A DNA stretch of 64,000 nt from Candidatus Oxydemutatoraceae bacterium (GCA_965223735.1 OZ245010.1:916924-980923); one strand, 5' to 3'; positions 6,557-42,662 are shown, numbered from the stretch's first letter. The notes: generated by a model from the sequence alone, not told the origin. Made by a program: numbers and translations.

Positions 6557-6702
6557 TATCAGGCTGCCTGGGGTCATCCCGAAGTTGACGTGCAGGTTGT
6601 CGGTCGGCGTTGTTGGTTGGCGTGGTGCCCCGCGCGCAGATGTCGCGGCAACCCGGGCAGGCCTGAAACATCGGAGACCAAGTTGCGGGGGCGGTTCAGC
6701 GC
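6557..6702 (-). repeat. ~145-bp IS-derived repeat, copy A (inverted copy of 17413..17555)
   Basis: About 85-90% identical to 17413..17555 in reverse complement (gcgytgaaccgcccccgcaac...cttcgggatgaccc). Copy B lies within the open frame at the 3' end of an rve-type transposase pseudogene. Confidence 0.6.
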
Positions 6703-6832
6703 ATTGCGGCAGAGGCGGCGCAAGTGGAGTACGGGGAGGGGGCCGCGACGGGCGCGGCGTCTTTGGTCTGGCGGAGAAAGAGGGTCTGGCGGAGAACGTG
6801 GAGGAGTGTAGCCGGGAACTGGATTGGTGAGT

Positions 6833-7088: not shown

Positions 7089-7281
7089 GTCGATGCGACA
7101 ACGGCTTCAAGGAAGGCCAAAAAAGCGCCGGGGTTCGCAGCCGCTACTGCCCGGCGCCCCGTCTTCCTGACAGCACTATTGGGCTGCACTCAAATTCCCT
7201 GTGCAGCCAGGACTGTCGCTCATGGACACCACCCGGCACGCCAGCATCGACCTTGATCGACGCTGTTCCGGCAGCAGGCGG

Positions 7282-7397
7282 CCTGAGCCAACCGGAACCC
7301 GTTATTGTTGTTGCGGTTGTTGCGGTTGTTCCTGTTGCGGTTCGCCGCACGCAGGTTCCCGGCGTTGTTGTTGTTCCAGGAGCCCCCGCGAAGCACG
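7282..7397 (-). repeat. DGR template repeat (TR)
   Basis: 116 bp, co-linear with VR1 (8882..8996) and VR2 (15019..15133). The coding sense is AAC-rich (..SWNNNNAGNLRAANRNRNNRNNRNNNNGFRLAQ). Nearly all TR/VR mismatches sit at TR adenines. Confidence 0.8.
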
Positions 7398-8405
7398 GGC
7401 TCGTATGGCAACAGCCCTCGTAAACTTCACGCCGCCGAAGATATTGCGGCGCAATCCCCACGTCTCGCCATGCCGGGCGTGCCCTATCCAGCTCATCACG
7501 CCGGGCTGAAAATCCGACAATTCACGCCGCCCCGCACGGTACTCTTCCGCCATGCCGCGTAGTCGGCGGCGAAAGCGGTAGCCGTTATCGTTGCGCAGCC
7601 AGCGCCTGCCGGCCGTCAACTGAAACCCCAGCACGTCCTGCTTTTCGCTGGTCCGGCACAGCTGCTGCTTCAGCGGGTGCAGTTGCAGGCCCAAGACGCT
7701 CAACGCTTGACCTGCCCTGTCGCGCAAAGCCCACAGATCAGCCTTGTTGTCGCCGAACAGGAAGAAGTCATCGACATAGCGCATGTAACCCCCCGCCCGC
7801 CGTTGCAGCTCGTGGTCAAGGGCATTCAGGTACAGATTGGCCAGCACCTGGCTGGTCAGATTGCCGATCGGCAGCCCCCGCCTGTCCCCGGCGGAATCAA
7901 CGATGGCGTCGAGCGCCCGCAACGCATATTCATCTTTCAGATAACGCCGGATGCAGGCTTTCATCCCGTCGTGCGGGATCGAGGGGAAATAGGCCGCGAT
8001 GTCGAGATGCAGCACGTAGGCATAACGTCGGGCCTGCGCCTGGTAATAGTCCAGTGCGCGATGCACCCCCATGCCTTTGCGGCAGGCCCAGGATTGATCG
8101 ATCATCGATCGATCCAGCCACGGCTCGATGACGTTCATCAGCGCGTGATGAACCACCCGGTCGGCAAAAGGCGCGCAGGAGATCACTCTCGGCTTGCGTT
8201 CGTAGAGGGTGAATTGCCGGTAGCCGCCCGGCTGCCACGTGTTGCCCGCCAATCGCCGTTGCAACTCGATCAAGTTGGTTTCCAGATCCAGCGCGAAGCG
8301 GGCGACGTCATCGCGCCGGGCCTTGCCCCGCCGGGCTTTGCGCCAGGCGAGATGCAGATTGTCGAAACTGCACACCTGCGGCCAGATCCTGCCCAGGCGC
8401 TTCAT
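7302..8405 (-). CDS. DGR reverse transcriptase
   Basis: RT motifs including RYVDDFFLFG (YxDD). Immediately downstream of avd with a 4-bp overlap. The 3' end of the ORF reads through the TR in another frame (..QQPQQPQQQ). Confidence 0.85.
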   Translation of the reverse strand: MKRLGRIWPQVCSFDNLHLAWRKARRGKARRDDVARFALDLETNLIELQRRLAGNTWQPGGYRQFTLYERKPRVISCAPFADRVVHHALMNVIEPWLDRSMIDQSWACRKGMGVHRALDYYQAQARRYAYVLHLDIAAYFPSIPHDGMKACIRRYLKDEYALRALDAIVDSAGDRRGLPIGNLTSQVLANLYLNALDHELQRRAGGYMRYVDDFFLFGDNKADLWALRDRAGQALSVLGLQLHPLKQQLCRTSEKQDVLGFQLTAGRRWLRNDNGYRFRRRLRGMAEEYRAGRRELSDFQPGVMSWIGHARHGETWGLRRNIFGGVKFTRAVAIRARASRGLLEQQQRREPACGEPQQEQPQQPQQQ

Positions 8406-8764
8406 GCCGGCTTCGCCCGCGAAACACTTTTCAGCCAGCCGCCGATCTGCCTGCCCAGGTCCACCATCAACCGGGCGCCGTGCTGGTAAGCCTTATGCGA
8501 AATGGCCTTCAATTCATAAGCCAGACGCCACAGGTGCTTCAGCACGTTGAGTTTCTGACTGGCGTATTCAAGCGCGCCCGCTTTTCTGGCGCTGAAAGCG
8601 GCCTTGACCAGATGCTCCAGCACCAGCAGCGCGTGGTTCTCCAGCCTCTCCCCGAGGATGAAACGCCGCTTGCGGGGAAAGCGGTCGATCTGAGGGATCA
8701 GCCACCGGATCATCTGGTGGCAGGACTCCACCGCCTGCGGCAATTGGGGCGTTTTTTCGGTCAT
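8402..8764 (-). CDS. avd: DGR accessory variability determinant (Avd; four-helix-bundle protein)
   Basis: 120 aa. Resembles Bordetella phage bAvd (..FPRKRRFILGERLENHALLVLEHL..KLNVLKHLWRLAYELKAIS..DLGRQIGGWLKS). Positioned between target and RT. Confidence 0.7.
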   Translation of the reverse strand: MTEKTPQLPQAVESCHQMIRWLIPQIDRFPRKRRFILGERLENHALLVLEHLVKAAFSARKAGALEYASQKLNVLKHLWRLAYELKAISHKAYQHGARLMVDLGRQIGGWLKSVSRAKPA

Positions 8765-8805
8765 GGCCGCATCATCAGAATTTCCCCCGCTGACGCACGG
8801 GCCGA

Positions 8806-8823
8806 CGCCGCCTCACGGCGGCG
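8806..8823 (-). other. GC hairpin (7-bp stem CGCCGCC/GGCGGCG, GTGA-type 4-nt loop) downstream of VR1/IMH
   Basis: Perfect palindrome cgccgcc-tcac-ggcggcg about 55 nt 3' of VR1 on the coding strand. An identical copy lies at 14943..14960 after VR2. Position and geometry match the DGR homing hairpin. Confidence 0.6.
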
Positions 8824-8873
8824 CGGCTCGCTCACGCTCGCCGTCAAGGGTCCAAGCATCAAGCGCCAAGGGA

Positions 8874-10184
8874 TCATAAGTCCTGAGCCAACCGGAACCC
8901 GAGCTCGCTGAAGCGGTAGCCGCGGAAGAACCCGTAGCGGTCCGCCGCACGCAGGGCCCCGGCGAGGTTGCTGAGCCAGGAGCCCCCGCGAAGCACGACG
9001 CGAATCCTGACGCCCTCAATATCCTTGACATCATCGCACCCGCGCGTCCAGGCACTGCCATCGACAGGCGCCCCCCTGTAATCCTCATGCCAGCAATCCT
9101 CCACCCACTCCCACACGTTCCCATGCATATCATGCAAACCGAACCCGTTCGCCCTGAAACGCCCCACCGGGGACGTGTACTGATACCCGTCATTGCAATG
9201 AAAACTTCCGCACTTGTAACCGACAGGGCAAAGACTATCGTCAAAGCAGTTGGCGTTGCCGCGAAGCGACGCCTCACTGTTGCCGGAATAATACCGGGTT
9301 TCGGTCCCCGCCCGCGCCGCATACTCCCATTCCGCCTCCGTCAGCAGACGGTACCGCTTCCCCATCTCCCGCCTCAGCCACTCGACATACGCTTTGACGT
9401 GATCCCAACTCACGCACACCACCGGGTGTTGACCCGTCTGGCTGAAACCGGGATTGCGCCAGTCGGCATTGGCATCGAAGACCACCTTTCCCTCACCTTG
9501 ATCCCACCTCAAACAACCACTGCCCGCATCGTAGCCCGTCGCCTTGACAAACGCCGCAAACTGCGCCCGCGTCACTTCATGTTTGCTCACCGCGAAGGAC
9601 TTGATCCGAACCGTATGCACCGGACGCTCACCATCGTCGCCCCCGCCCTGAAGGTCCCCCATCCGGAAACTCCCGCCCGGCAACACCACCATCTCCGGCT
9701 CGAAATATCGCGCTGCTCGATGGCCCGGCATGGCCGACGTCAGCCAAGTGCCGATTACATACCCCACTTTGCCGTCCGCCAGTTCAACCTTATGCCAGCC
9801 TGAACCCCCCGACCCAACCACCGACACCGCTTCCGACGCCGAGAGTCTGCCGATGATCTCATGCTTCATCCCCGGCCCCGAACGCACGTTCACGTCCACA
9901 CGCGCATACATCCGCCGGACTTCAGGCCGCTCTGCAACCACCTCGCCAGACCCTTGCCGGGCGGGCGGCTTCTGTGCAACGCGGGCGGCAGCTTCAGGCG
10001 CATAACCTTTCCCGACAGAGGCCGACGAGGCTTTGGCAAGGCAGACAACTTCAGAGGCGAGAACCTGTGACGTTCGGTCTGGCGCGGCGGCGCCGACATC
10101 CATGCTCCAGCAGACGCTCTCAGCCTGCGCGGCCTGATAAAGACCGTGGACAAAAGAGAAAAAAAGCAAGCCGGGCATTATCAT
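8874..10184 (-). CDS. DGR target protein 1: signal peptide + bacterial SH3 domain + FGE-sulfatase/C-type-lectin-fold domain with C-terminal VR
   Basis: MIMPGLLFFSFVHGLYQAAQA signal peptide. SH3b-like segment VNVRSGPGMKHEIIGRL...GWHKVELADGKVGYVIGTWL. FGE-domain motifs (HTVRIKSFAVSKHEVTRAQFAAFV..., WEWVEDCWHEDY, RGGSW). The listed ORF extends further upstream to 10334. Confidence 0.7.
   Translation of the reverse strand: MIMPGLLFFSFVHGLYQAAQAESVCWSMDVGAAAPDRTSQVLASEVVCLAKASSASVGKGYAPEAAARVAQKPPARQGSGEVVAERPEVRRMYARVDVNVRSGPGMKHEIIGRLSASEAVSVVGSGGSGWHKVELADGKVGYVIGTWLTSAMPGHRAARYFEPEMVVLPGGSFRMGDLQGGGDDGERPVHTVRIKSFAVSKHEVTRAQFAAFVKATGYDAGSGCLRWDQGEGKVVFDANADWRNPGFSQTGQHPVVCVSWDHVKAYVEWLRREMGKRYRLLTEAEWEYAARAGTETRYYSGNSEASLRGNANCFDDSLCPVGYKCGSFHCNDGYQYTSPVGRFRANGFGLHDMHGNVWEWVEDCWHEDYRGAPVDGSAWTRGCDDVKDIEGVRIRVVLRGGSWLSNLAGALRAADRYGFFRGYRFSELGFRLAQDL
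8882..8996 (-). repeat. DGR variable repeat VR1 (3' end of target gene 1)
   Basis: Aligns with the TR end to end. The encoded VLRGGSWLSNLAGALRAADRYGFFRGYRFSELGFRLAQDL differs from TR-encoded ..NNNN..N..N.N.NN.NN.NNNN.. only at TR AAC codons. Confidence 0.8.
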
Positions 10185-10249
10185 GGCGCCTGCCTTCCGG
10201 GCGCGGCCCGCCCCCCGCAGCCTCCGTGCAAACGCAGGCTTCCCCGTTC

Positions 10250-13200
10250 TCAGGGCATTTGTACTTTGGTTTGACATTTTGGGCCACCTCCTGTGGGGCA
10301 TCTTGCCGGAAAACTCCGGTTTTGAACTGTCCAATTTATGGGGAAGCCTACGCTTTCTACACCAGTAATCTTCAGACTGACCCTTCTATTCAAGGCGTGT
10401 ATGAAACTGTTTTCACCTTTCAGCATTGTCTCTTCAAACCGTTTCTCCTCTCCCTCATTATTCTCAGGATCCCATTTCACCAGCTTAATTTCGGGTATTT
10501 TCCCGCAAATTTTAAGGGCTTCTGGTTCATTGACCAAGGTTTTCAATTTACGGCACACCGCTTCTGCTCTTCTATTTGCCAGTTCCATATTTGTCTTCAT
10601 TTCGTCTCGGCCTGTATGCGGCCTTTTATCCGCCAGCCCCATCACTTTAATCACCGGATTACCACCTCGACAATTCCCAAAGTGTTCAGTCAGCTCGCTT
10701 GACATTTTCTTCCAATCGTCTTCTTCCACCTTCAGTTCATCTTTGCCGGTTTCAAATAGAGGTAACCAAATCATTGTACTTTTCGACGTTGAGCCCTCGA
10801 CTACAGGAGAATGGTAGTTCACCACGACTTTCGTCGTTGAGCTGCAATGTGTATGAGAACAGCTCTCTACGGCCTTTGGCGTTGAATCCAGGCTTCTCAT
10901 GTATCTGTCAAATTCCTGAACTTCAAATCCTTGCTTTCCATCTTCGATCAATACGGCGTTGCCAAACCGAATGACGCTACTCGGTGCATCTTTGAGATGA
11001 AGATGAAACCTGTCACTATGTTTAATACAGTATCCGCTAAGACAACCGGTCCCCAGTAGTGACAATAAAAGAATACCGATGAACCCATATGTATAACTTC
11101 TCTTTGAGGTGATAAAGAAATCAATCAGAGAGCGCTTTTTGAAAATTGCCTCGTGCGCCAATACCAATGTTTTCTGTTTCGGAATCCTGATTTCCATGCG
11201 CTTTTTTGCACAACGTGCCGTCGCCTGGTAAAATGCCAACAATGCAGTGATAACCAAAAAAACAGAACCAGCTGAATGAACAGGGTATTGCACCAACGCC
11301 TGAAGCCCACTTTCCCAAGTTTGCAAAGGAGCGGTACCGGGTAACACGAATGTGAGTGCCGCAAAGTATATAAACACGGAAAAAATCAATATTATGGATG
11401 GCTTAAAACCATCAATCACCAGGTAACGCCTATAGAACCTCTTCAGATACGGATAGATATCATCTGGCTTCTCGCGATTCACCCAAGTAAGAAGTTTTTT
11501 AAATACTTCTTCCCTTAATTCGGTTATAACTTTAAGTTTTTTCGTCACTCCTCCTAAATTTTCGACCAGTTCCCCACTACTTTCAATTCCCATCTTCAGC
11601 CCACCCACTTCCGCCAATACTCCTTTCAGATTTTTTAATTCTGGTGTTTGGGGGGTACCCCAGTGGCCCTTGCCCGCATTTTTTGATAGTTTCAAATAAT
11701 CATAGATTTCACGCTTCCTATTCTTTTTCATGCCCTCGTAACATTCAGAACATTTTCTAAGTCTGGATTTCAAGTCTTTAAGCCCACTTGACATACCCCC
11801 CTTCAAACTACTTACTGTTTTTTCAAATTCAGATTTAAAGTCTCTAAATCCACTTAACACACTCTCCACTAAACCCTTTGCTGTTTTCTCTGCTTCCTCA
11901 AGTTCAGATTTCAAACCTTCAAGCTTGTCTTGCGCGTTTTTCGTCAGACTTTTCACTTTTTTTTCCACGTTCTCAAATTCCTCTCTCAAGTCCCTAAGCC
12001 TGTTTTGCACGTCCTCCACCCTCCTTAACCATCCCTTTTTTACTCCTGTTGCTTTCTTAAGTTCGGCTTCCACACCTCCAAGTTCGTTTCGCGCGCTCCT
12101 CACCTTGTCCGACCCTTCCCTTTCCACTTTCTCAAATTCATTTTCCAAATCTTCAAGTCTGCTTTGCATATCCCCCGCCAGAGCTTTCTCTTTTGTTTCC
12201 TCAGAGATCTTTCGCACTTCCCTTATTTTCTCAAGTTCAACTTCCACACTTTTAAGCTTGCTTTGCGCGTTTCTCGCCAAGTTCTTCACTTCTTCTTTTG
12301 CTTCCTCAAGTTCAGCCCCCAGATCTTTAAGCTTGCTTCGAGCACCCTTCACCAGTCCCCCCTCTTCCTCTTCTTTAAGTTTCTTTCGTGCCTCTCTTAC
12401 TTTCTCAAGCCCAGCTTCCAGACCTTCAAGCTCGCTTTGTACATACTCCGCCAAACTCTCATTTTCCACTCCCTTAAGTTCAGCTCCCAGACCTTTAAGC
12501 TCGTTTTGTGCATACTTCGCTAAACTCTCATTTTCCACTCCCTTAAGTTCAGCTTCCAGGCCTTCCAGATCTTCTTCCACTCCCTCAACCGCAGATCTCA
12601 AGCCTTTAAGCTTGCTTCGCACATCCTCCACCAAACCTTCCTCTCTTACTTTTTCAAGTCCTTCTCTTGCGCCCCTTACTTCCCCAATTTCAGATCTCAA
12701 GCCTTTAAGCTTGCTTCGTGCGTCCCTCACCAAGTCTTTCACTCCTTTTTTTACTTTCTCAAGTTCAGCTTCCAGACCTTTAAGCTCGCTTTGTGCATCC
12801 CCCACCTTCTTTAACCTCTCCTCTTTTACCTCCTTAAGTCCATCCTTGAATTCAGTTTCCAACCCCTCAAGCGTACTTTGCGCATTCCCCACCAACCCAT
12901 CTTTCTCTACCCCCTCAAGTGCAGCCTTCAAATCTTCAAGCTTGCTTTTCGCATCCTCCATCAACCCCTTCTTTTCAACCTCCTCAAGCGCAGTCTCCAG
13001 GTCTTTAAGCTTGTTTTGCGCACCCTCTACCAAGACACCGCCCTGTTTTACTTTCTCAAGTTCAGCTCCCAGATCTTCAAGCTTGTTTCGCGCGTCCCCG
13101 ACCTTCGTTAACCTCTTTGCTTCTCTCACAAGCCTGTCCTTAAATTCACCCTCCAGCTTTTCAAGCCTGCTTTTCCTCGCATCCCCCACCAGACCCTTCT

Positions 13201-14812
13201 TCTTTATTTCCCCAAGTGCAGTTTCCAAGCTTTCAAGCTTGCTTCGTGCATGCTTTACTTTCTTCAACTCCTCTTCTTCCACCTTTACTTTCTCAAGTCC
13301 GTCCTTAAGTTCAGCTCCCAAACCTTCAAGCTTGTTTCGCGCATCCTCTACCAGCCCCTTCTTCCCCACCTCCTCGAGTGCGGTTTTCAAGCCCTCAAGC
13401 TCGCTTTGCACGTCCCATGCCAGATCCTTCTCTTCTACCTCCCCAAGCGCAATCTCCAGGTCTTTAAGCTTGTTTTGCGCATCCCTCATCAGCCTTTTCA
13501 TTTCTTGTTTTACTTTCTCAAATTCAGCTTCCAAACCTTCAAGCTTGTCTTGCGCATCTCTTACCAGCTCCTTCTCTTCTACCTCCCAAAGTTTGGGTTT
13601 CAGGCTCTCAAGCTTGCTTTGCGCATCTCTTACCAGCCCCTTCTTTTCCACCTTCCCAAGTTTGGTTTCCAGTTCTTCAATCTCGCTCTGCGCGTCCCTT
13701 ACCAGATCCTCCTTTTTCACTTTCTCAAGCTTGGATTTCAAGTCCCCAAGCTTTTCTCCTGTTTCCCGCGTAATACTGTAATCTGCATCTATAGTCTCAA
13801 AAACATTCTTTAAATTTTCGTCTTTAGCAATCTTGACTTTGTGCTTTTTACTTCCTTCAGACCAGTTTGGGTGATCATCAAGAAATTCTAGCGCGCCTTT
13901 TGCACGCTTATTGAAATCTTCCAACTTAAAAAGTAAATCCTTCTGGAAAAGTAAATCCTTCTGGCCCGGGTGATCATCACCGGCACTTGGAGAGGGATCA
14001 GCTCTTATATGTTCCAACAAAATTCGGGAAAGAGGCTTGATTACATTCTTATCAGACCAATATTTGGTGTGACAGCGTAGATTCCATGAAGTAAAAATGC
14101 CTCCTACATTAATAGGGTGATCTTTAATATCCTCGAATGGTTTCCCCAGTTGCTTTAACGGCCAACCCAATACATCATCGGGGTCATAGTAATTATCCCA
14201 CCTGAATTCTTTCTTCGCTGCTATGTCGAAACACTTACGATCATTCTCAGCTATCCCTGAAACGAATACTGGAATATTGCATCCTGTCGTAACCAAGTTC
14301 CTCAACGAATGCAATTTAACAAAAGCCAGTTCATCAGAAGGAAGTCCTGGATTGTTTTTAAAAATATGGTTGCCATTTTCAGCATCCCACAAATAATTTG
14401 AAATCACCTGACAGCCAAGAGATTGAGCAATGATCACAACAGGTTTCGAGTTTTCACCCCCGCTGAGATCCTTATAGGCCTCTTTCAAGGCGTTCATTAT
14501 TTCTGTTTGCGCCTTAATATATGCTTTTGCCTCTTCGGTGCGGGCGCTGCGCTCAAGAGAGCCCGCGTCGCCGAAACCAAACAAGACGAATTTTCTTAGC
14601 GACTTAAAATCAACCTTGTTCTCTGACTTGATCTTTCGCCATAATCGATCCTGATGGCCCTGCAGTGTTGAGTCATACCTCACATTTTGGAAAGAGACCT
14701 TCTCCCACTTATCTTTAAGACGCCTTCTCAGGCCCTTTTCCAAACCTGCATAGTAATTATCCTTGCGTTCTCCCATGCCATGGAGTGTGATCAATGCCAC
14801 CTTTTTACTCAT
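10250..14812 (-). CDS. giant (1520 aa) modular protein: N-terminal alpha/beta-hydrolase-like domain (GxSxG = AQSLG), ~30 tandem ~23-aa coiled-coil repeats, multi-TM segment, C-terminal OmpA/MotB-like peptidoglycan-binding domain
   Basis: One uninterrupted ORF. The N-terminal has ITLHGMGERK...IAQSLGCQV. Its repeats read like LVRDAQSKLESLKPKLEEVEKKG. Hydrophobic helices fall around residues 1125-1260. The C-terminal domain reads VIKVMGLADKRPHTGRDEMKTNMELANRRAEAV. Markedly lower GC than flanking DGR genes. Confidence 0.7.
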   Translation of the reverse strand: MSKKVALITLHGMGERKDNYYAGLEKGLRRRLKDKWEKVSFQNVRYDSTLQGHQDRLWRKIKSENKVDFKSLRKFVLFGFGDAGSLERSARTEEAKAYIKAQTEIMNALKEAYKDLSGGENSKPVVIIAQSLGCQVISNYLWDAENGNHIFKNNPGLPSDELAFVKLHSLRNLVTTGCNIPVFVSGIAENDRKCFDIAAKKEFRWDNYYDPDDVLGWPLKQLGKPFEDIKDHPINVGGIFTSWNLRCHTKYWSDKNVIKPLSRILLEHIRADPSPSAGDDHPGQKDLLFQKDLLFKLEDFNKRAKGALEFLDDHPNWSEGSKKHKVKIAKDENLKNVFETIDADYSITRETGEKLGDLKSKLEKVKKEDLVRDAQSEIEELETKLGKVEKKGLVRDAQSKLESLKPKLWEVEEKELVRDAQDKLEGLEAEFEKVKQEMKRLMRDAQNKLKDLEIALGEVEEKDLAWDVQSELEGLKTALEEVGKKGLVEDARNKLEGLGAELKDGLEKVKVEEEELKKVKHARSKLESLETALGEIKKKGLVGDARKSRLEKLEGEFKDRLVREAKRLTKVGDARNKLEDLGAELEKVKQGGVLVEGAQNKLKDLETALEEVEKKGLMEDAKSKLEDLKAALEGVEKDGLVGNAQSTLEGLETEFKDGLKEVKEERLKKVGDAQSELKGLEAELEKVKKGVKDLVRDARSKLKGLRSEIGEVRGAREGLEKVREEGLVEDVRSKLKGLRSAVEGVEEDLEGLEAELKGVENESLAKYAQNELKGLGAELKGVENESLAEYVQSELEGLEAGLEKVREARKKLKEEEEGGLVKGARSKLKDLGAELEEAKEEVKNLARNAQSKLKSVEVELEKIREVRKISEETKEKALAGDMQSRLEDLENEFEKVEREGSDKVRSARNELGGVEAELKKATGVKKGWLRRVEDVQNRLRDLREEFENVEKKVKSLTKNAQDKLEGLKSELEEAEKTAKGLVESVLSGFRDFKSEFEKTVSSLKGGMSSGLKDLKSRLRKCSECYEGMKKNRKREIYDYLKLSKNAGKGHWGTPQTPELKNLKGVLAEVGGLKMGIESSGELVENLGGVTKKLKVITELREEVFKKLLTWVNREKPDDIYPYLKRFYRRYLVIDGFKPSIILIFSVFIYFAALTFVLPGTAPLQTWESGLQALVQYPVHSAGSVFLVITALLAFYQATARCAKKRMEIRIPKQKTLVLAHEAIFKKRSLIDFFITSKRSYTYGFIGILLLSLLGTGCLSGYCIKHSDRFHLHLKDAPSSVIRFGNAVLIEDGKQGFEVQEFDRYMRSLDSTPKAVESCSHTHCSSTTKVVVNYHSPVVEGSTSKSTMIWLPLFETGKDELKVEEDDWKKMSSELTEHFGNCRGGNPVIKVMGLADKRPHTGRDEMKTNMELANRRAEAVCRKLKTLVNEPEALKICGKIPEIKLVKWDPENNEGEEKRFEETMLKGENSFIHALNRRVSLKITGVESVGFPINWTVQNRSFPARCPTGGGPKCQTKVQMP
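11820..13800 (-). repeat. in-frame tandem coding repeats (~69-72 bp period) inside the giant gene (coiled-coil array)
   Basis: Recurrent nucleotide and amino-acid motif (..GLEAELEKVKK.., ..LVRDAQSKL..). The antisense 618-aa Ser-rich ORF (11925..13781 +) is an artifact of this repeat. Confidence 0.7.
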
Positions 14813-14942
14813 TTTTACTCATTTTTCTCTCCTGCCTGTTGCTTGCCTTCCGGTACAACCACCATCTCCATCTTCAGGCAATGTCTGCCCTTGCACCCCG
14901 CGCCACCCTGTCCCGTCGGCCCACGGCCACGTCACGGGCCGA

Positions 14943-14960
14943 CGCCGCCTCACGGCGGCG
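14943..14960 (-). other. GC hairpin downstream of VR2 (second copy)
   Basis: Same cgccgcc-tcac-ggcggcg palindrome as 8806..8823, within a duplicated 3' flank. Confidence 0.6.
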
Positions 14961-15010
14961 CGGCTCGCTCACGCTCGCCGTCAAGGGTCCAAGCATCAAG
15001 CGCCAAGGGA

Positions 15011-15895
15011 TCATAAGTCCTGAGCCAACCGGAACCCGCCATTGTGGACCCGGTCGACGCGGTTGCTCCAGTTGCGGGCCGCCGCACGCAGGTCCCCGGC
15101 GTCGCCGTCGCCCCAGGAGCCCCCGCGAAGCACGCGAATCCTGACGCCCTCAATATCCTTGACATCATCGCACCCGCGCGTCCAGGCACTGCCATCGACA
15201 GGCGCCCCCCTGTAATCCTCATGCCAGCAATCCTCCACCCACTCCCACACGTTCCCATGCATATCATGCAAACCGAACCCGTTCGCCCTGAAACGCCCCA
15301 CCGGGGACGTGTACTGATACCCGTCATTGCAATGAAAACCTCCGCACTTGTAACCGACAGGGCAAAGACTATCGTCAAAGCAGTTGGCGTTGCCGCGAAG
15401 CGACGCCTCACTGTTGCCGGAATAATACTGGGTTTCGGTCCCCGCCCGCGCCGCATACTCCCATTCCGCCTCCGTCAGCAGACGGTACCGCTTCCCCATC
15501 TCCCGCCTCAGCCACTCGACATACGCTTTGACGTGATCCCAACTCACGCACACCACCGGGTGTTGACCCGTCTGGCTGAAACCGGGATTGCGCCAGTCGG
15601 CATTGGCATCGAAGACCACCTTTTCCTCACCTTGATCCCACCTCCAACAACCACTGCCCGCATCGTAGCCCGTCGCCTTGACAAACGCCGCAAACTGCGC
15701 CCGCGTCACTTCATGTTTGCTCACCGCGAAGGACTTGATCCGAACCGTATGCACCGGACGCTCATCATCGTAGCCCCCGCCCTGAAGGTCCCCCATCCAG
15801 AAACTCCCGCCCGGCAACACCACCATCTCCGGCTCCCAGGCAATCCCATCACCGGAAAGAAGCAGCAGACAACAAGACAGCAACGCGGAACGCAC
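15011..15895 (-). CDS. DGR target protein 2: signal peptide + FGE/C-type-lectin-fold domain with C-terminal VR
   Basis: Paralog of the target 1 C-terminal ~290 aa (about 1 kb of near-identical DNA, 8795..9810 vs 14930..15845) with a different VR. GTG start; N-terminal hydrophobic leader LLSCCLLLLSG. Confidence 0.7.
   Translation of the reverse strand: MRSALLSCCLLLLSGDGIAWEPEMVVLPGGSFWMGDLQGGGYDDERPVHTVRIKSFAVSKHEVTRAQFAAFVKATGYDAGSGCWRWDQGEEKVVFDANADWRNPGFSQTGQHPVVCVSWDHVKAYVEWLRREMGKRYRLLTEAEWEYAARAGTETQYYSGNSEASLRGNANCFDDSLCPVGYKCGGFHCNDGYQYTSPVGRFRANGFGLHDMHGNVWEWVEDCWHEDYRGAPVDGSAWTRGCDDVKDIEGVRIRVLRGGSWGDGDAGDLRAAARNWSNRVDRVHNGGFRLAQDL
15019..15133 (-). repeat. DGR variable repeat VR2 (3' end of target gene 2)
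   Basis: Encodes VLRGGSWGDGDAGDLRAAARNWSNRVDRVHNGGFRLAQDL. Differences from the TR are again at TR adenines, with one cgc>cgg exception. Confidence 0.8.
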
Positions 15896-15948
15896 CGTGG
15901 AGACCAGGCGCGCTTCGAAATCGAAATCGGTTTTTACAGTTTGCTCAA

Positions 15949-15964
15949 GGGGGGGGGGGGGGGG
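15949..15964. repeat. homopolymeric G16 tract (poly-C on the coding strand) ~55 nt upstream of target 2 start
   Basis: 16 consecutive G at 15949-15964, in the presumptive promoter region of the target2-giant-target1-avd-RT gene string. Confidence 0.9.
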
Positions 15965-16023: not shown

Positions 16024-17400
16024 TTGTATGAAGCGACAATGCTCATAAGGGGAACAGCTATACCACCGAAATCAAGTAATATCAACTCAATGTATAAGGC
16101 CGTGTTAGCCCAAAGGTGTGATCGGCTGGAACTGATCCGGCGAGTGCAAGCCGGAGAGCTGAAACAAGCTCGGGCGGCAACCAGGATGGGGGTATCCGAA
16201 CGCCACTTCCGGCGCCTGCTCAAGCGGTTTCGCCGCCACGGGCGGTCAGGGCTGGTCTCCCGGCGGCGCGGCGCACCTTCCAACCACCGTTTGCCCGACG
16301 CGACCCGCCGTCGCGCCCTTGAACTCATCAGGGAACGCTACGCCGACTTCGGGCCGACCTTCGCGCACGAGAAGCTTATGGCGCTGCACCGCGACAAGTT
16401 TGACCGCAGCTTCAGTGTTGAAACGCTGCGACGATGAATGATCCAAGAGCAGTTGTGGAGCAAGCGTTCACGGCGTACGCCCCGCATTCACCAGCCGCGT
16501 TTCGGGGAGATGCTCCAGATAGGCGGCAGCCTGCACGACTGGTTTGAAGGCCGGGGTCGTCCGTGCACCCTGATCGCCTTTATCGACGATGCCACTTCCG
16601 CGGTCACCGAGTGGCGTTTTTGCGAAGCCGAAACCACGTTCAACCACTTCGCCTGCCTGAAGCGGCACCTGCACCGCTACGGGCGCCCGGCCAGCGTGTA
16701 TTCAGACCGCCACGGCATCTTCCGGGTCAATGCCAGGGAACAGTGGCAGCCGCACAAAAAGACACAATTCGCCCGCGCCCCGGGGCAATTGGAGATCAGG
16801 TTGATCTGCGCCAGAACGCCACAGGCCAAGGGGCGCATTGAACGCTTGTTCCAGACCGTCCAGGATCGGTTGGTCAGGGAATTGCGGTTGCAGGGCGTCA
16901 GCACCATTGAGCAGGCCAACGCCTTTATCGATTAATACCGCGAAACCTTCAATGAGAAATTCGCAAAATCCCCGGCAGATCTGAATGACGCGCATCGTGG
17001 GCTGCATTGGAGTGACAGGGAACTGCAACTCATCCTGTCCAAACAACGTTGCAGAATCCTGTCACGGAACCTCATCTGCCAATACCACACCGTCCAATAC
17101 CTGGTGCAGACAAGCAAACCTTGCTATGCCATGCGCGGTGCTGCGGTAACCGTGTGTGAACACGTCGGCGGCGAGGTGGTCATATTATACAAGGGACGCG
17201 AACTGTCCTGCCGGGTTCACGCGCAACACGAGCCGGGGCCCGCACTGGTGGATGAGAAAGAGGTGTCGCAGCGGGTGGACGAGGTGCTGCACCGGCAGGG
17301 GGAAGATGGCCGCAAACCGGCGCCAGCGCATCCGTGGAGGCGCTGGAACCCCGGTTATTTGAGTTCCGGGCGCAGGCTGCTGACCGGACATTTCTACTTT
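16024..17400 (+). pseudogene. rve-type (DDE) transposase, IS481/ISNCY-like, disrupted by two in-frame stop codons
   Basis: An HTH segment (..RMGVSERHFRRLLKRFRRHGRSGLVSRRRGAP..) plus an integrase core (..YSDRHGIFRVN..TPQAKGRIERLFQTVQDRL..) all lie in one frame. The frame is broken by TGA at 16435-16437 and TAA at 16933-16935. The same frame continues past 16935 (..CYAMRGAAVTV..) into the ~145-bp repeat (copy B). Confidence 0.55.
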
Positions 17401-17412
17401 GGTTTGACACAA

Positions 17413-17555
17413 TGCGTTGAACCGCCCCCGCAACCTGGTCGCCGAACCCTGTTTCAGGCCTGCCTGAGTTGCCACGGCACCTGCCCGCGGGGCGTCACCC
17501 CCATCAACAACGCCGACCGGCAACCCGCACGTCAACTTCGGGATGACCCTGATAG
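17413..17555 (+). repeat. ~145-bp IS-derived repeat, copy B
   Basis: Inverted partner of 6557..6702. Lies within the open frame of the transposase pseudogene above, just before the tnpB left flank. Confidence 0.6.
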
Positions 17556-22289: not shown

Positions 22290-22565
22290 AAAGGAAACCG
22301 ACATGCCGGTCCAGCACGTCAGCTTCCGCCTCAAAGGTTTCTATAAAATCGCCTCTTTATCTACCAAATGGGAGGCGATTATGGGGACTGTAGCCCAACA
22401 GAAACTTGAAGCCCTGACATTCTGGAACAAACACGGCCTGAATGTCACCTTTGATGCATTATAATAACCGGCGCCCATACCGGGGACTCGACAACCTGAC
22501 ACCCAGCCAAATGCTTGCCAAAAATCTGCCCCTGATGTCCCATATGTGGCGGCCGCATACAAGAG
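22290..22565 (+). mobile_element. internally deleted IS481-family element (copy 1)
   Basis: Transposase N-terminus (..FRLKGFYKIASLSTKWEAIMGTVAQQKLEALTFW..) is fused to the extreme 3' end (..nrrphrgldnltps..). Homologous to 24215..24600. Confidence 0.55.
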
Positions 22566-24214: not shown

Positions 24215-24600
24215 TGAAGCCGACATGCTGATTCAACACATCGGCTTCCGCCTCAAGAGTTTCTATAAAATCGCCTCTTTATCTGCTAAATGGGAGGCGA
24301 TTATGGGAACTGTAACCCAACAGAAACTTGAAACCCTGACATTCTGGGACAAACGCGGCCCCGATTGTACTTCAGGGCCACCCTTGACGCATTCAAGGTC
24401 AGCCGTTCCACCCTGTATCGCTGGCGCCAGGCCTACCGCATCGCGGGCTTGAGCGCGCTGCATGACCGCAACCGTTACCCAGGTCGCTATAATAACCGGC
24501 GCCCGCACCGGGGACTCGACAACCTGACACCCAGCCGAATGCCTGCCAAACGTCTGCCCCTGATGTCCCATAAGCGGCGGCCTCATACGCCGAATTGACT
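24215..24600 (+). mobile_element. internally deleted IS481-family element (copy 2)
   Basis: N-terminal fragment, then HTH (RSTLYRWRQAYRIAGLSALHDR), then the extreme C-terminus of the rve core (YNNRRPHRGLDNLTPS) in ~380 bp. Confidence 0.6.
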
Positions 24601-24674: not shown

Positions 24675-25877
24675 ATGTTAATGGACGTATTGACCGGCAT
24701 CGGCCTGCTGAATTTGCCGTGGTGGGGCTACATCGCCATCACCCTGATAACGACGCATATCACGATCGCCTGCGTGACACTTTTCCTGCATCGCTCCCAG
24801 GCGCATCTCTCGGTGGAATTTCACCCCGCGGTGACGCACCCGATGCGCTTCTGGCTGTGGATGACAACCGGCATGATCACGCGCGAGTGGGTCGCGATCC
24901 ACCGCAAGCACCATGCCACGGTGGAAACCGAGCACGACCCGCACAGCCCGAAAATACACGGCATCCTGAAAGTGCTGTTCGGCGGTACCGAACTCTATCG
25001 CAGGGAAGCCGCCAACAAAGACACGCTCGAAACTTACGGACGCGGCACACCGCAGGACTGGATTGAAAAAAATCTCTACACCAAACGATCGACCGGAGGC
25101 ATTTGTATACTTTTCGGCGTGTATTACACACTGCTCGGCTTTTGGGGCATCGCGATGTGGGCGGTGCAGATGATGTGGATTCCGTTTTTTGCCGCCGGCG
25201 TGGTCAACGGCGCCGGGCATTTCTTCGGATACCGCAACTACGAGACCGACGACAACTCGACCAATCTGGGTAACATCGGCCTGCTCATCGGGGGCGAGGA
25301 ACTGCATAACAACCACCACGCTTTCCCGGGGTCAGCGAAATTGTCGGCGCAGGCCTGGGAATTTGATATTGGCTGGCTGTACATCAACCTGCTGAAACAC
25401 TTGCGGCTGGCGTGCGTCAAAAGAGTGATGCCGCCGCGCAAAGTCGCGCGGCGCGTGTCGCGCCTTGACTTGGAAACCGTACAGACGCTTCTGCACGGAC
25501 GCCTGCACGTGATGGCGGACTACGTGAACACCGTCATGCACCCCGTGTTCAGGCAGGAACTGAAACTCGCAAAAGGCTCCTACCTGCGCCTTCTGAAAGG
25601 CGTGAAGAAGCCGTTTCTCTATCACGAAAAAAACATCGGGCGCCACGACCTCAACCGCCTGAAAGAAGCGCTAGTGGACAACGAAACACTGAAAACGGTT
25701 TATGAGTTCAGGCATCGCCTGCAATCGCTGTGGCACGATCTGCGCGGCGACCACGAAAAGCTAAGAGTTGCGTTGCTCGAATGGTGCTGGCAAGCCGAAC
25801 AAAGCGGTCTGCACGCGCTTGAGGAATTTGCCCGCAAGATCAAAGGCTGCACCGAGATCAGGCAGACCCCCGCCTGA
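24675..25877 (+). CDS. membrane fatty-acid (acyl-CoA/acyl-lipid) desaturase
   Basis: His boxes HRKHH and HNNHH with N-terminal TM helices. 400 aa. Confidence 0.8.
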   Translation: MLMDVLTGIGLLNLPWWGYIAITLITTHITIACVTLFLHRSQAHLSVEFHPAVTHPMRFWLWMTTGMITREWVAIHRKHHATVETEHDPHSPKIHGILKVLFGGTELYRREAANKDTLETYGRGTPQDWIEKNLYTKRSTGGICILFGVYYTLLGFWGIAMWAVQMMWIPFFAAGVVNGAGHFFGYRNYETDDNSTNLGNIGLLIGGEELHNNHHAFPGSAKLSAQAWEFDIGWLYINLLKHLRLACVKRVMPPRKVARRVSRLDLETVQTLLHGRLHVMADYVNTVMHPVFRQELKLAKGSYLRLLKGVKKPFLYHEKNIGRHDLNRLKEALVDNETLKTVYEFRHRLQSLWHDLRGDHEKLRVALLEWCWQAEQSGLHALEEFARKIKGCTEIRQTPA

Positions 25878-35495: not shown

Positions 35496-38024
35496 TCACG
35501 CTGCATCAGCCTGATCCTGTCGTATCAGTCTTTCGAATTCCTTCCGGAAGTTGTCCTGAAACAGCATGCTTAAAGACATGCGGTGTTTTTTCCGCTTACT
35601 GCCGGAAAACTTCAAGGTGCCGTATTCCACCGCGTGCGGTTCCGCCGTTTCCAACACTTCGAACAGCTTCTTCTTGTATTCGGTATCGGCATTGCCGGCC
35701 AATTGCAGTCCCTTTGTCTCGATTGCCAGAACGCGCCGGGTATTGCCGTTCCCTCGCTCCACGCAAACGACGAAGTCGGGATATATACGGTTGCGCTTCC
35801 AACCCTGAAGACCGTAATCCTGCCTCGCGGCGAAGCGATGCCACCATGCAACGGCATTGTAACCATCCAGATAAATGGCAAAGTCTTTTTCCAGACCATT
35901 GAATTCCCTGGCATATACCTTTTCGTACAGGGATTTCTCCAAAGGATTCCCATGTTGGCCGAAGAGCGGTAACTGATCTTTTTCCACCAACTTCCTCAAT
36001 TTCTGCTCAAACTCAAACTCGCTCTCGTCGGCGACCAATTCAAACCGGATATCGTGGTTCCGCAACTTGCGGTGAAATATGGTTTGTGCTTCACACTCAA
36101 CAAGTTCAGCCAAGCGCCGTTTCAGGATCTCGGAAAGGTGGTAGCGGCGGTCGAAAATATCGTCTTCCGTACGCCCCTGACCGCGAAGTGAATCCAGCGT
36201 CTTCCCCACGGCCTGTCCCGCCAAAAACGGATTCGGCAAAGTCTCGTAAATACGGCGGCTGAAAAACTCCACAGTGAGCACCTTCTCCACCTCCAGTTTC
36301 TCTTCATCGGTATCGTAGTCAAACCCTGGCAGATCGACGAGAGCGGTGATCTCTCGAATTTCATCTATTGCGGAATAATTCACATCCAACGGCGCCTCCG
36401 CAATCGCGTTCCAGTCAACTCCGCCCAAGATATCGTTTTCATAGTCCAGCGGCCGATAACGCCTGCCGGCGCGATGCAGTACTTGCGGCAGAAAAATCCG
36501 CATGTCGCGGAACCGCTCTCGCCTACGGCTGACGATCAATTGGCTGCCGTCGCCGTTTTGGTTTCTGCCCGACCCGCCACGGATAAATTCAGCCAAGTCG
36601 CTCATGCCTTCCTGTTCCAGCCCCCGCTTGACGTCAACTATTGCCTCCCCGACGTCGCGGTCAAAGCAATAGATATACGACTCATCGAGCTTCGCCCGTC
36701 CGGTCAGCTCCGCATCGGGTTGCCGAAGAACACGCCCGGTCATTTGCGTCAGGGCACGGGTCGTGCTGGTGGAATCGAGCAACGTAAGCACGTAGGCAAA
36801 AGGGCAATCCCACCCTTCGCGCAGCGCGTCCTTCGTCAGGATATAACGGACGGAGGAATAAGGCGAAAGCAGATCCTCATCGGCGATCTCGTCTTTTTCC
36901 GCCGTTTTTCGCCGGATGTGGTTTTCGGGCACCCGCAATTGTCTCATCAGGTAGTCGCGCACGTCCTCGGCATGAATATGTTGGCCATCTCGCTGATCGC
37001 GCCCGACGCGCTCCACGCAGACCAGCATGATCGGACGGATGTAGCGCCCGCTCTCCCCCATCAATTTGCGCGCTTCCTGCTCCAGGCGGCCCAGCCGCTC
37101 CTTGGCCTTGGAGAGCGTGTACTTCCAGTCGGCTTTCTCGAAGTTGTGTATGTTCAGCGGCAACTTGATCATCTCCTCACGCTTCAACGCCGCGCCGCCA
37201 ACGTCCACCAGAATGTTGCTGACACTCGCTTCTGGGGTTGCGGAAAGTTCCAATATGAAACGCGGGTTGAGCTCGTTGAGGCGCGCGCGGCGGTTCTCGG
37301 TATAGGTGTTGTGCGCTTCATCCAGAACGATGATAGGACGGGCTATTTTAAGCACGTTGAACAAGCTGTGCTTGACTGACCCCGGCTTGCCGTCAACGAT
37401 GTCGGTGACTTTCAAATCGGGGTGTTGCTTGATCAATTCATCATTTGCCGACTTGTCGTCTGGCTCTGGAAAAAACGAAGGATAGTGTCCGGTATCCCGA
37501 AAGATCTTAAGAAAGTTCTGGTCTTTCCTATCAGCCGCCTGCAACATGACCGGCATCACGCACAGATGATTTTCCACGTCGGCGAGCGAGAACGGATCAG
37601 TCTTTCTCAACAACTTGACCCTTCCACCACAGGCGCGTTCAAGCGATTGGCGGTAGGGATGCAGGCGATGTGCAAGCGCGCGCCAGGTCTGCCGGAAAAT
37701 AGCGCGCGACGGCGTGATCCAGAGCACCAGCCCGGCAGCCGGCTTCATCCGTTCAATGGCGGCCGCCCCCAATAAGGTCTTGCCGCCGCCGGTCGGTAAC
37801 TTCATGCAAACGTGGGGAATTATCCGGCCATGTTCGTCTTGCCGCCTGACATAAGGGGACGGCGACAAAGCGCCGCTCTTATCTTTGACATGAGGCAAAA
37901 GACCGCGCCGCCCCAGCTCTTCCCAAGTCTTTGCAAAATAATCCCGATCGCTCTCGCCGATAGGCAGGTCGGCGTCCTCCAATGCTTTGATGCGTTTTTT
38001 TGCCTCGTCCTTCTGTTTTTTCAA
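35496..38024 (-). CDS. SF2 helicase (Type III restriction Res-like) with C-terminal PD-(D/E)xK nuclease domain
   Basis: Motif I LPTGGGKT, motif II VLDEAHN, motif III SATP. C-terminal YPDFVV...LAIETKG (PD...ExK). 842 aa, co-directional and immediately downstream of the RT gene. Confidence 0.65.
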   Translation of the reverse strand: MKKQKDEAKKRIKALEDADLPIGESDRDYFAKTWEELGRRGLLPHVKDKSGALSPSPYVRRQDEHGRIIPHVCMKLPTGGGKTLLGAAAIERMKPAAGLVLWITPSRAIFRQTWRALAHRLHPYRQSLERACGGRVKLLRKTDPFSLADVENHLCVMPVMLQAADRKDQNFLKIFRDTGHYPSFFPEPDDKSANDELIKQHPDLKVTDIVDGKPGSVKHSLFNVLKIARPIIVLDEAHNTYTENRRARLNELNPRFILELSATPEASVSNILVDVGGAALKREEMIKLPLNIHNFEKADWKYTLSKAKERLGRLEQEARKLMGESGRYIRPIMLVCVERVGRDQRDGQHIHAEDVRDYLMRQLRVPENHIRRKTAEKDEIADEDLLSPYSSVRYILTKDALREGWDCPFAYVLTLLDSTSTTRALTQMTGRVLRQPDAELTGRAKLDESYIYCFDRDVGEAIVDVKRGLEQEGMSDLAEFIRGGSGRNQNGDGSQLIVSRRRERFRDMRIFLPQVLHRAGRRYRPLDYENDILGGVDWNAIAEAPLDVNYSAIDEIREITALVDLPGFDYDTDEEKLEVEKVLTVEFFSRRIYETLPNPFLAGQAVGKTLDSLRGQGRTEDDIFDRRYHLSEILKRRLAELVECEAQTIFHRKLRNHDIRFELVADESEFEFEQKLRKLVEKDQLPLFGQHGNPLEKSLYEKVYAREFNGLEKDFAIYLDGYNAVAWWHRFAARQDYGLQGWKRNRIYPDFVVCVERGNGNTRRVLAIETKGLQLAGNADTEYKKKLFEVLETAEPHAVEYGTLKFSGSKRKKHRMSLSMLFQDNFRKEFERLIRQDQADAA

Positions 38025-40343: not shown

Positions 40344-40450
40344 ATATGGGACAAATGAGGCAGATGTTTGGCAAGCATTTGGCTGGATGTCAAATTGTCG
40401 AGTCCCCGGTGCGGGCGCCGGTCATTATAGCGAGCCAGATACGCCAGCAG
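40344..40450 (-). mobile_element. IS481-family 3'-end remnant (copy 3) abutting the RT start
   Basis: Reverse complement is ~90% identical to 24490..24590. Confidence 0.5.
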
Positions 40451-40753: not shown

Positions 40754-41196
40754 GATCGGTCGCCGTGAAAATGTAGCGATGGGTACGATCGATCAGTGTT
40801 CCACTTCAGGCGCACCACCGTATCAAACGCGATGCAGTGACCCGGATAGTCAGCACGGACCTCTTGCCCAGACGTTGCTTCTAGTAGCGACGCCGCGGCT
40901 TGATCTTCTCTTTTAGCATTAAGCAAACCGAGGCGGAACGCATCTTGTCTGGCGCCTCGCCAACGCAGTCATTGCGGTGCAGGTTGCAGCAACCAGTCAC
41001 ACGGCAACTGCTACACAACCGGGTCACCGATCATCGGCAATGGCCGGGGAAGCGGCGCACGACGACCGGCGCCGCAACCGTGTAGCTCCGATCCCGGCCG
41101 GGCATGGTTGGTGAGAGTTGGGATATCCCAATCCACTCCGTGCAGCCTCGATCCTGGCCGGGCATCCTTTGCACTAGCAGACCACAGCTACCGGCC

Positions 41197-41400
41197 GATC
41201 GCGCGATGATCAATGTCGCGACGACCTGGCGGATCTGGCAGTGACGGCGTCACCGGCCGATCGCGCGATGACCGATGTCGCGACGACTTGGCGGATCTGG
41301 CGGTGATGGCGTCACCGGCCGACCACGCGATGATCAATGTCGCGACGACCTGGCGGATCTGGCAGTGACGGCGTCACCGGCCGATCGCGCGATGGCCGAT
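41197..41400. repeat. ~63-bp tandem repeat (about 3.3 copies) derived from the purD 3' terminus
   Basis: Unit caccggccgatcgcgcgatgatcaatgtcgcgacgacctggcggatctggcagtgacggcgt repeats head to tail. The first partial copy is the real purD C-terminus (..[11 protein letters not shown]). Confidence 0.75.
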
Positions 41401-42651
41401 GTCGCGGCGGCAGAACGCCCCCGGCCAACTGATTTCCCCACAAGCGCGATAGGCGCCGGATTGAGCACCAGCAACGGTATCCGCAAGCACCGTCACGCAC
41501 AGCACGCGCCCGCCCGCAGTCACCACTTCGTCGCCGCGCATCCGCGTCCCGGCATGAAACACCTTGACCGCATCGTCGCCGACAGCATCCAGCCCGGTGA
41601 TCACCTCGCCTTTTTCATAAGCCGCCGGATAGCCCCCGGCCGCCATCACGACGCCAAGCGCCGTCCGCTCGTCCCATTCGGCGCATGCGCCGTCGAGCCT
41701 GCCGGCCAGCGCCAAGCGACAAAGTTCGACCAAGTCTGAACGTAACCGCATCAAAATAGGCTGCGCTTCAGGATCCCCCAACCGGCAATTGAACTCGAGT
41801 ACCGACGGACGCCCGGCGCCGTCGATCATCAAGCCCGCGTAAAGAAACCCGACAAACGGCGCACCTTCCTGTCTCAGGCCGTCCACCGCGGGCTGCATCA
41901 CCTCGTCCAGCACGCGCCTCTGCAAAGCATCATCCAACACCGGCGCCGGTGAATACGCGCCCATGCCGCCGGTGTTCGGCCCGCGGTCGCCTTCATCCCT
42001 CGTCTTATAATCTTGCGAAGTCGCAAGCGGCAACACGTGTTCACCGTCAACCATGCAGATGAAACTTGCTTCTTCTCCCCGCAAAAACTCCTCGACCACA
42101 ATGCGCCTGCCGGCGTCTCCGAAATCGGCACCCGAAAGCATGCCACGCGCCGCGTCGATCGCCTGCGCACGAGTATCGGCAACCACCACGCCCTTGCCAG
42201 CCGCCAAACCGTCAGCTTTAACGACCACCGGTAGTTTGCAGGTTTCAAGATAAGGTAGCGCCGCGCTTTCGGCATCGAACACCCCGAAGTCCGCGGTCGG
42301 AATGCCGTGACGACGCATGAACGCTTTGCTGAACTCCTTGGACCATTCGAGTTTTGCCGCCGCGCGCGTCGGGCCGAACACAGCGAGATCGCGTTGCTGA
42401 AAATATTCGACGATGCCCTGCGCAAGCGGCGCTTCGGGGCCGACGAGCGTCAGGTCAACGCCCTGCCGCGACGCAAAATCCCGCAATGCATCAAAGTCGA
42501 GCACGTCGAGCTCAAGATTCTCGACCCCGTCTTCACCGGCGGTTCCGGCGTTCCCCGGCGCCACATACACCTGTTCGACCGACGGGCTTTGCGCGATCTT
42601 CCATGCGAGCGCGTGCTCCCTGCCGCCGGAACCGATGACAAGCACTTCCAT
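41374..42651 (-). CDS. purD: phosphoribosylamine--glycine ligase
   Basis: [19 protein letters not shown]-terminus. Confidence 0.9.
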
Positions 42652-42662
42652 CGACGATCGCG

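Follow-up and report, generated by a model that had tools for sequence, protein, structure and literature searches.

A probable chromosomal diversity-generating retroelement with two lectin-fold targets in a Candidatus Oxydemutatoraceae bacterium

A group of minus-strand genes in a 64,000-nucleotide stretch of DNA from Candidatus Oxydemutatoraceae bacterium (GCA_965223735.1 OZ245010.1:916924-980923; this whole stretch is referred to below as the window) raises the question of whether it forms a working diversity-generating retroelement (DGR), and whether such an element would depart from those already described. An initial annotation had described a complete DGR, with a reverse transcriptase (RT), its partner Avd, one template repeat (TR) and two target genes that each carry a variable repeat (VR); every one of these components is present and intact. 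Along the minus strand the order is target 2, a gene for a protein of 1520 aa, target 1, avd, RT, TR, a structured RNA and, finally, a stem followed by a run of six T residues. Our analysis indicates that the locus is very probably a chromosomal DGR of the avd-RT-TR type (architecture B2) with two lectin-fold targets.

The evidence that carries this assignment lies in the repeats. A repeat finder returned a single three-copy family of 116 nt, consisting of the TR (7282-7397, minus strand), VR1 (8882-8997, minus strand) and VR2 (15019-15134, minus strand); each VR makes up the final 38 codons of its target gene (VR1 in target 1, VR2 in target 2). All the genes involved are encoded on the minus strand, and the three copies were compared in that orientation. 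The TR has 32 adenines in its 116 nt and is rich in AAC in the reading frame of the targets. VR1 is 79% identical to it, with 23 of 24 mismatches at TR adenines, and VR2 is 83% identical, with 19 of 20 at TR adenines. Pooled, 42 of the 44 mismatches fall on TR adenines (P = 1.6e-21 for at least this number in a binomial test in which change is independent of the base). The only two exceptions are T7304 (AAT to GAG, in VR1) and C7313 (CGC to CGG, in VR2), precisely the two non-adenine differences listed in the initial annotation. Its proposal of adenine-specific mutagenesis, with more than 90% of mismatches expected at A, is thus borne out by tabulation against the TR base, and an even spread of mismatches over all four TR bases is excluded. 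The codons that it gave as replaced in the VRs agree with the codon table, and its TR coordinates stand, with the end of each VR extended here by one base. When every A of the TR was set to N and the result was compared with the whole window, no copy was found beyond the TR and the two VRs.

The codons open to variation in the target frame are 14 AAC, one AAT and one AGG. Substitution of the adenines in these codons cannot create a stop, and roughly 1e18 protein variants are accessible to each VR.

The TR and both VRs end in the same 19-nt GC-rich stretch, GGGTTCCGGTTGGCTCAGG (7282-7300 in the TR, 8882-8900 in VR1 and 15019-15037 in VR2; all minus strand), in which the lone adenine is unchanged in VR1 and VR2. 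Beyond it both VRs continue as ACTTATGATCCC, which holds the stop codon, and the TR continues as CCGCCTGCTGCC. The common tail described earlier after both VRs as resembling the initiation of mutagenic homing (IMH) element is therefore present as an identical stretch in all three copies, and it appears to be the IMH/IMH*-like boundary at which TR and VR part. Each VR is followed by the GC hairpin that had been predicted, CGCCGCC-GTGA-GGCGGCG, with a perfect 7-bp stem and a GTGA loop (8806-8823, minus strand, between target 1 and avd; 14943-14960, minus strand, after VR2). In both cases 58 nt separate the end of the TR/VR homology from the start of the stem, and the 3' flank of the TR has no GC hairpin of this kind. 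The VR hairpin of a relative (locus L001, introduced below) has an identical stem and a GTAA loop. In the relatives, a GC hairpin with 6 bp or more occurs within 120 nt in 35 of 65 VR flanks, and the median distance is 47 nt; the 58-nt distance is typical of the clade. A GC inverted repeat after the boundary has been reported for 34% of DGRs (PMC5758913).

The RT open reading frame (ORF) encodes 367 aa (7302-8405, minus strand; Pfam RVT_1, E 1e-19), of which residues 1 to ~334 (8405 to ~7404) are the part that aligns with homologs. The top match among solved structures is 8ub7 chain A (E 1.9e-40, residues 5-318), presumably the DGR RT of Bordetella phage; for group II intron RTs the best E value is 1.3e-16. 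The motif [ILV]GxxxSQ of DGR RTs is present as IGNLTSQ. This motif and YVDD are intact and are invariant across an alignment of 12 homologs, in agreement with the earlier description of a DGR-type RT with YVDD. Scores against models of other RT classes were below the cut-offs: 119 bits for group_II_RT_mat (cut-off 300), 58 bits for the retron St85 model (235) and 36-45 bits for the Drt2-5 models (200-550). The stop codon of avd (120 aa; 8402-8764, minus strand) overlaps the RT start codon (ATGA). Profile searches support the identification of Avd, with a Pfam bAvd match (E 1.5e-16) and a score of 81.4 bits against the NCBIfam equivalog DivGenRetAVD, above its cut-off of 80. Avd had no sequence match among solved structures.

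The RT ORF enters the TR through a 33-codon tail and ends at a TAA inside it. In the closest relative (RT 76% identical), represented by loci L001 and L002 (Logan SRR26493823 and SRR26493825), the L001 RT stops 33 codons earlier: it ends GCC GAA TGA where the TR starts. The window reads GCC ATA CGA at this point, so the ORF extends for 33 codons because the TGA of L001 is CGA here. P0001 and about a third of the homologs listed leave the tail uncovered, and the glutamine-rich ends of the aligned homologs result from in-frame reading of each homolog's own TR; from these alignments the tail shows no sign of conservation as protein. The overlap of RT and TR, which had been singled out as unusual, is accordingly a read-through tail of a kind also seen in homologs.

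Both targets belong to the same fold family. Target 2 (294 aa; 15011-15895, minus strand) matches Pfam FGE-sulfatase over residues 21-291 (E 7e-61) and, among solved structures, PvdO (E 3e-48), formylglycine-generating enzymes (FGE) and the Treponema variable protein TvpA (2y3c, E 3.5e-8). Its hydrophobic N-terminal segment MRSALLSCCLLLLSGDGIA resembles a signal sequence and is a putative signal peptide. Target 1 (8874-10277, minus strand) matches FGE-sulfatase (E 2e-61) and has in addition an SH3_3 domain (E 4e-11), in keeping with the SH3b domain assigned to it originally. Its longest ORF runs to 10334; translation probably starts at the ATG at 10277, with an AGGAGG 9 nt ahead of it, and the N-terminus that follows is also signal-like and may be a signal peptide. 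In both proteins the FGE-sulfatase domain extends to the C-terminus and takes in the VR, so the description of two VR-bearing paralogs of FGE/C-type-lectin fold holds, with E values near 1e-61 in both.

The two target genes share a recently duplicated segment that comprises the FGE domain, the VR and the 3' flank with its hairpin (8793-9701 and 14929-15835, both minus strand; 95.9% identity over 910 nt). Outside the VR, the copies differ by seven substitutions and one 3-nt insertion or deletion in ~815 nt (~99% identical), and the 109 nt lying 3' of the variable core have no differences. The 74-nt VR core itself has 26 differences between VR1 and VR2. With a divergent core inside a duplication that is otherwise ~99% identical, diversification must have come after the recent duplication.

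Directly 3' of the TR lies a structured RNA of ~165 nt (7119-7281, minus strand; all elements that follow are on the same strand), conserved in an alignment of 40 relatives. It begins with a 10-bp stem-loop (7242-7265; loop CAAG) that starts 16 nt after the TR, followed by the motif GGTGTCCATGAG (7219-7230), which stands between this stem-loop and the terminal stem, and by a hairpin (7182-7208). It closes with the terminal stem (7125-7158) and T6 (7119-7124), both read directly from the sequence; a simple terminator scan made no call here, the loop being above the limit of the scan. RNAalifold on the 40 relatives predicted 22 pairs, 20 of which show compensatory changes. In a 38-pair model, 88% of cells are in standard pairs, compared with 38-50% when the partners are slid by one to three columns, and the covariation score is 0.49, compared with 0.09-0.14 for the slid partners; none of 500 shuffles reached the observed pairing or covariation score. 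The stem-loop at 7242-7265 and the terminal stem are the best-supported elements. For the middle of the RNA, RNAalifold on sub-alignments also suggested a long-range pairing of GUCCAUGA with UCAGGGA together with a central hairpin; support for it was weak, and it is not relied on here. Rfam 15 gave no match to the RNA at the gathering threshold or at E values up to 1.

In Bordetella phage, the priming site is provided by a spacer RNA of 140 nt that adjoins the TR on its 3' side, and putative Avd-binding stem-loops just 3' of the TR have been described for 207 of 278 Avd-containing DGRs (bioRxiv 10.1101/2023.10.23.563531). By analogy, the RNA in the window occupies the position of the spacer RNA and appears to fit its description.

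How far does this layout depart from known elements? On the minus strand, avd (8764-8402) is followed by RT (8405-7302) and TR (7397-7282), a core order published as architecture B2, avd-RT-TR (Wu et al. 2018, PMC5758913). We surveyed 80 metagenomic loci with RTs 47-54% identical to that of the window, 50 of which have a detectable TR/VR pair. In 47 of these 50 the TR starts 6-80 nt after the RT match, and seven of the 47 have two VRs. The TR also follows or crosses the end of the RT in genome relatives from Thiocapsa, Saprospiraceae, Raymondbacteria and Anaerolineae; loci of the Competibacter type and from Plasticicumulans have the order target, avd, RT with TR, target 2. The position of the TR downstream of the RT, thought at first to be unusual, is therefore the ordinary one. 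The same is true of the use of one TR for two targets: multiple targets occur in ~15% of DGRs and targets that are not adjacent in 45 of 372 (PMC5758913), and two targets also in four of the relatives studied here (L034-L037). Some relatives (L034 and L036-L038) have TIR-FGE targets. The layout is normal for its clade and no new kind of system.

Comparison with three described systems places the element more closely. The Bordetella phage BPP-1 DGR (mtd-avd-TR-brt) has an RT of the same clade (presumably 8ub7) with an Avd partner, adenine-specific transfer from TR to VR, and a VR at the C-terminus of a lectin-fold protein. It also shares a GC-rich boundary followed, at the VR only, by a GC hairpin with a 4-nt loop, and a structured non-coding RNA directly 3' of the TR. 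It differs in that BPP-1 is a phage and the window element is chromosomal, that its target is Mtd rather than two proteins of FGE-sulfatase type, that in the window 58 nt intervene between the end of homology and the hairpin, and that its order is avd-TR-RT in contrast to avd-RT-TR in the window. From this last difference it follows that the 3' RNA of the window is a terminal untranslated region, ending in a stem and T-run, and not a spacer ahead of the RT gene as in BPP-1.

Architecture B2 DGRs with targets of category 'b' (FGE-sulfatase targets, the largest category, with 19% of DGRs) share the core order and the target category; more than one target and a GC inverted repeat are likewise on record for DGRs, at ~15% and 34%, respectively (PMC5758913). 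Two features set the window apart from them: the RT ORF runs 33 codons into the TR, and one target carries an SH3b domain, the term 'SH3' being absent from the main text of Wu 2018 (PMC5758913) and of Roux 2021. The SH3b fusion in target 1 is a minor domain-shuffling variant. The TvpA DGR of Treponema denticola likewise has a variable protein with an FGE-type lectin fold (the 2y3c match given above) and one TR for several targets, some of them not adjacent; unlike the window, which has Avd alone, it has an HRDC accessory gene and architecture C (PMC5758913). In Thiohalocapsa sp. PB-PSB1, DGR loci fall into classes, each with one complete locus and others that are degenerate, and transposons have shaped them (Dore et al. 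2024, PMC10907252). The resemblance extends to cellular DGRs in several related copies per genome, lectin-fold targets, and loci shaped by duplications and transposon remnants; the targets in the window differ in being small, probably secreted proteins, and the window has no NACHT, TIR or AAA domains of conflict systems. Neither the window TR nor the term 'SH3' occurs in the supplementary files of that study (PMC10907252).

A mechanism can be proposed by extension from the Bordetella phage model (Handa et al. 2018, PMC6182149; bioRxiv 10.1101/2023.10.23.563531). Transcription would yield an RNA that spans the TR and the 3' structured region and ends at the stem and T6; this RNA would probably be the 3'-terminal part of the avd-RT message. 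The RT-Avd complex would bind the stem-loop just 3' of the TR and prime cDNA synthesis from that RNA. The RT would then copy the TR faithfully except at adenines, where any base could be inserted, and the cDNA would replace the homologous VR. On the 3' side, replacement would be limited by GGGTTCCGGTTGGCTCAGG and by two features present at the VRs and missing from the TR, the VR-specific flank and the GC hairpin.

The varied residues are predicted to make up the C-terminal face of a lectin-fold protein, presumably a secreted one, and the bacterial SH3 domain of target 1 points to anchoring in the cell envelope. Given variation at the C-terminus of a lectin fold and the presence of this SH3 domain, ligand-binding diversification is the likely role of the element.

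Whether the locus is still active is a separate question. In the closest relative, 3 kb compared between its two sequencing runs (L001 and L002) show 26 differences, 25 of them in the VR and 22 at TR adenines, so the VR heterogeneity in related genomes that had been suggested as a check does occur. (L001 also has, at 2038-2294 and 3' of the TR RNA, a third, decayed VR-like copy with its own hairpin.) As far as sequence comparison can tell, the window locus too is probably active at present.

The setting of the element bears on this question. Its neighbors are chromosomal genes, encoding MutM, an FkbO-like chorismatase, DUF218 and hydantoinase proteins, and no phage genes were seen among the ORFs examined around it. 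An insertion sequence (IS) remnant, an IS481-like transposase split by a frameshift (16024-16935), adjoins target 2, and remnants of an IS605 TnpB lie beside the same gene at ~17.6-18.0 kb. A 140-nt inverted repeat (86% identity; 6571-6706 and 17410-17549) brackets the whole DGR region of ~10.7 kb, its right copy standing just before the TnpB remnants. The 1.85-Mb source contig contains, outside the window, truncated RT paralogs (255, 167 and 86 aa) and further Avd copies (P0002, P0122, P0123 and P0126-P0128). The paralog P0002, with a truncated RT of 255 aa, has the same TR-encoded tail as the window RT, LLEQQQRREPACGEPQQEQPQQPQQQ, and at least one more near-identical TR must therefore exist in the genome. 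Within its 90% cluster, no other RT on this contig is full-length, and for that reason the window RT probably also serves the degenerate sister loci in trans. A related locus on a 22-kb contig (L033:1-11500; ENA ERZ25072670; Avd 88-91% identical) packs five FGE-target paralogs, four avd copies (two of them full, two partial) and a broken RT into ~11 kb, which suggests that units of target plus avd were duplicated repeatedly.

Several observations weigh against a complete and active DGR. The RT is without the stop codon of its closest relative and has gained a tail of 33 residues. The middle of the RNA fold is weak, with helices 3 and 4 paired in 81-86% of cells and little covariation in helix 3. 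A Bordetella-like priming duplex between TR and RNA was sought by eye in the 3' RNA; nothing conserved was seen, and the priming site was not located. The 58-nt distance to the hairpin exceeds that of Bordetella phage. Exact-protein look-ups with the window RT, Avd and P0002 gave no second assembly of the locus, a look-up with MutM gave only a 3.4-kb contig that ends before the DGR, and the exact 45-nt 3' flank of the VRs was not found in JGI metagenome contigs. Finally, the IS481-like and IS605 remnants beside target 2, together with the degenerate sister copies, make decay a live possibility.

The main rival explanation builds on the last of these points. It holds that the locus is a relic, in which past activity made the adenine-specific differences and the targets are no longer diversified. 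The truncated RT copies and Avd fragments on the same contig and in L033 would fit such a history, as would the transposase pseudogenes flanking target 2, the lost RT stop codon and the identical VRs of three relatives from three samples (L036, L037 and L038). It is at odds with the intact state of RT, Avd, TR, the two VR frames, the two hairpins and the 3' RNA, and with the 26 VR differences inside a duplication that is otherwise ~99% identical, which make the activity recent; the nearest relative, moreover, varies between samples. We regard a relic as unlikely. It is very unlikely that VR1 and VR2 were written by a near-identical TR/RT copy elsewhere in the genome, with the window cassette not the donor. 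The shared tail of P0002 and the other near-identical TR that it implies speak for a donor of this kind, but the P0002 RT is N-terminally truncated and the others are shorter still, leaving the window RT as the only full-length member of the cluster, and only two non-adenine positions separate the local TR from the two VRs. Matches of the RT to group II intron, retron and Drt models, all below threshold, might suggest that we are dealing with diverged fragments of ordinary paralogous genes and with a group II intron, retron or defense RT, but this is refuted, to the point of having almost no chance of being correct, by the mismatch pattern, by a DGR RT as best solved-structure match by 24 orders of magnitude and by dozens of relatives with TR/VR pairs of their own, as well as by NCBIfam RT scores far below cut-offs and an Avd above its equivalog cut-off. 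A DGR with the window cassette as donor thus remains the preferred explanation.

The gene between the two targets (10250-14812, minus strand; 1520 aa) had been listed in the gene order of the element and is better described as a passenger. Its GC content is 0.445, compared with 0.62 in the flanks, and tblastn found no match to it in 119 related loci; on the grounds of this foreign base composition and missing homolog, a role as a DGR component is rejected. The protein has an alpha/beta-hydrolase-like N-domain, ~750 aa of coiled-coil repeats, transmembrane segments and a weakly OmpA-like C-terminus. The gene contains 20-23 tandem repeat units of ~69-75 nt, and the coiled-coil repeats are of 23-25 residues. 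The N-terminal ~266 aa are 50-61% identical to widespread stand-alone hypothetical proteins (more than 1000 relatives), and the exact sequence of the whole protein is absent from a collection of 15 billion proteins. If target 1 starts at the ATG at 10277, the stop codon of this gene lies 28 nt inside target 1. The three genes are on one strand, and the 28-nt overlap comes with a good ribosome-binding site, which would be compatible with a single co-expressed envelope module in which a long filamentous scaffold of 1520 aa acts with two hypervariable lectin-fold proteins, target 2 and the SH3b-bearing target 1. The foreign base composition of the middle gene and its lack of a homolog in the 119 related DGR loci count against such a module, and we consider it highly doubtful.

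Elsewhere in the window, a second, unrelated RT of 716 aa (38193-40343, minus strand) matches the PADLOC defense class RT_UG19 over its full length (E 1e-144) and adjoins a Type III restriction enzyme gene (35496-38024, minus strand; E 5e-227). The RT_UG19 gene lies in a low-GC island, the restriction gene is below the window average in GC, and purD and purH are found further along. Short repeats of ~100-145 nt (86-91% identity, one of them inverted) at the edges of low-GC islands (22294-22560, 24216-24588 and 40328-40433, the last just upstream of the RT_UG19 gene) may be miniature transposable elements. ARAGORN reports a tRNA-like gene of 90 nt (25540-25629, minus strand) with no definite anticodon and without Rfam support at the gathering score. 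A ~62-nt unit is repeated in tandem at 41190-41406 (89-97% identity); the array overlaps the first 33 nt of the longest purD ORF (41374-42666, minus strand) and extends just past it.

DGRs are a class with tens of thousands of members, to which the locus adds a well-formed cellular example; its biology is not new. In having one complete and several broken cassette copies beside transposon remnants, the genome resembles that of a multicellular purple sulfur bacterium described previously. The covarying RNA 3' of the TR in this avd-RT-TR clade is absent from Rfam 15 and could be curated as a family, which could help in finding TRs and in designing in vitro substrates for RT-Avd. The 909-bp duplication serves as an internal clock: after the two copies split, the element wrote different sequences into each of them.

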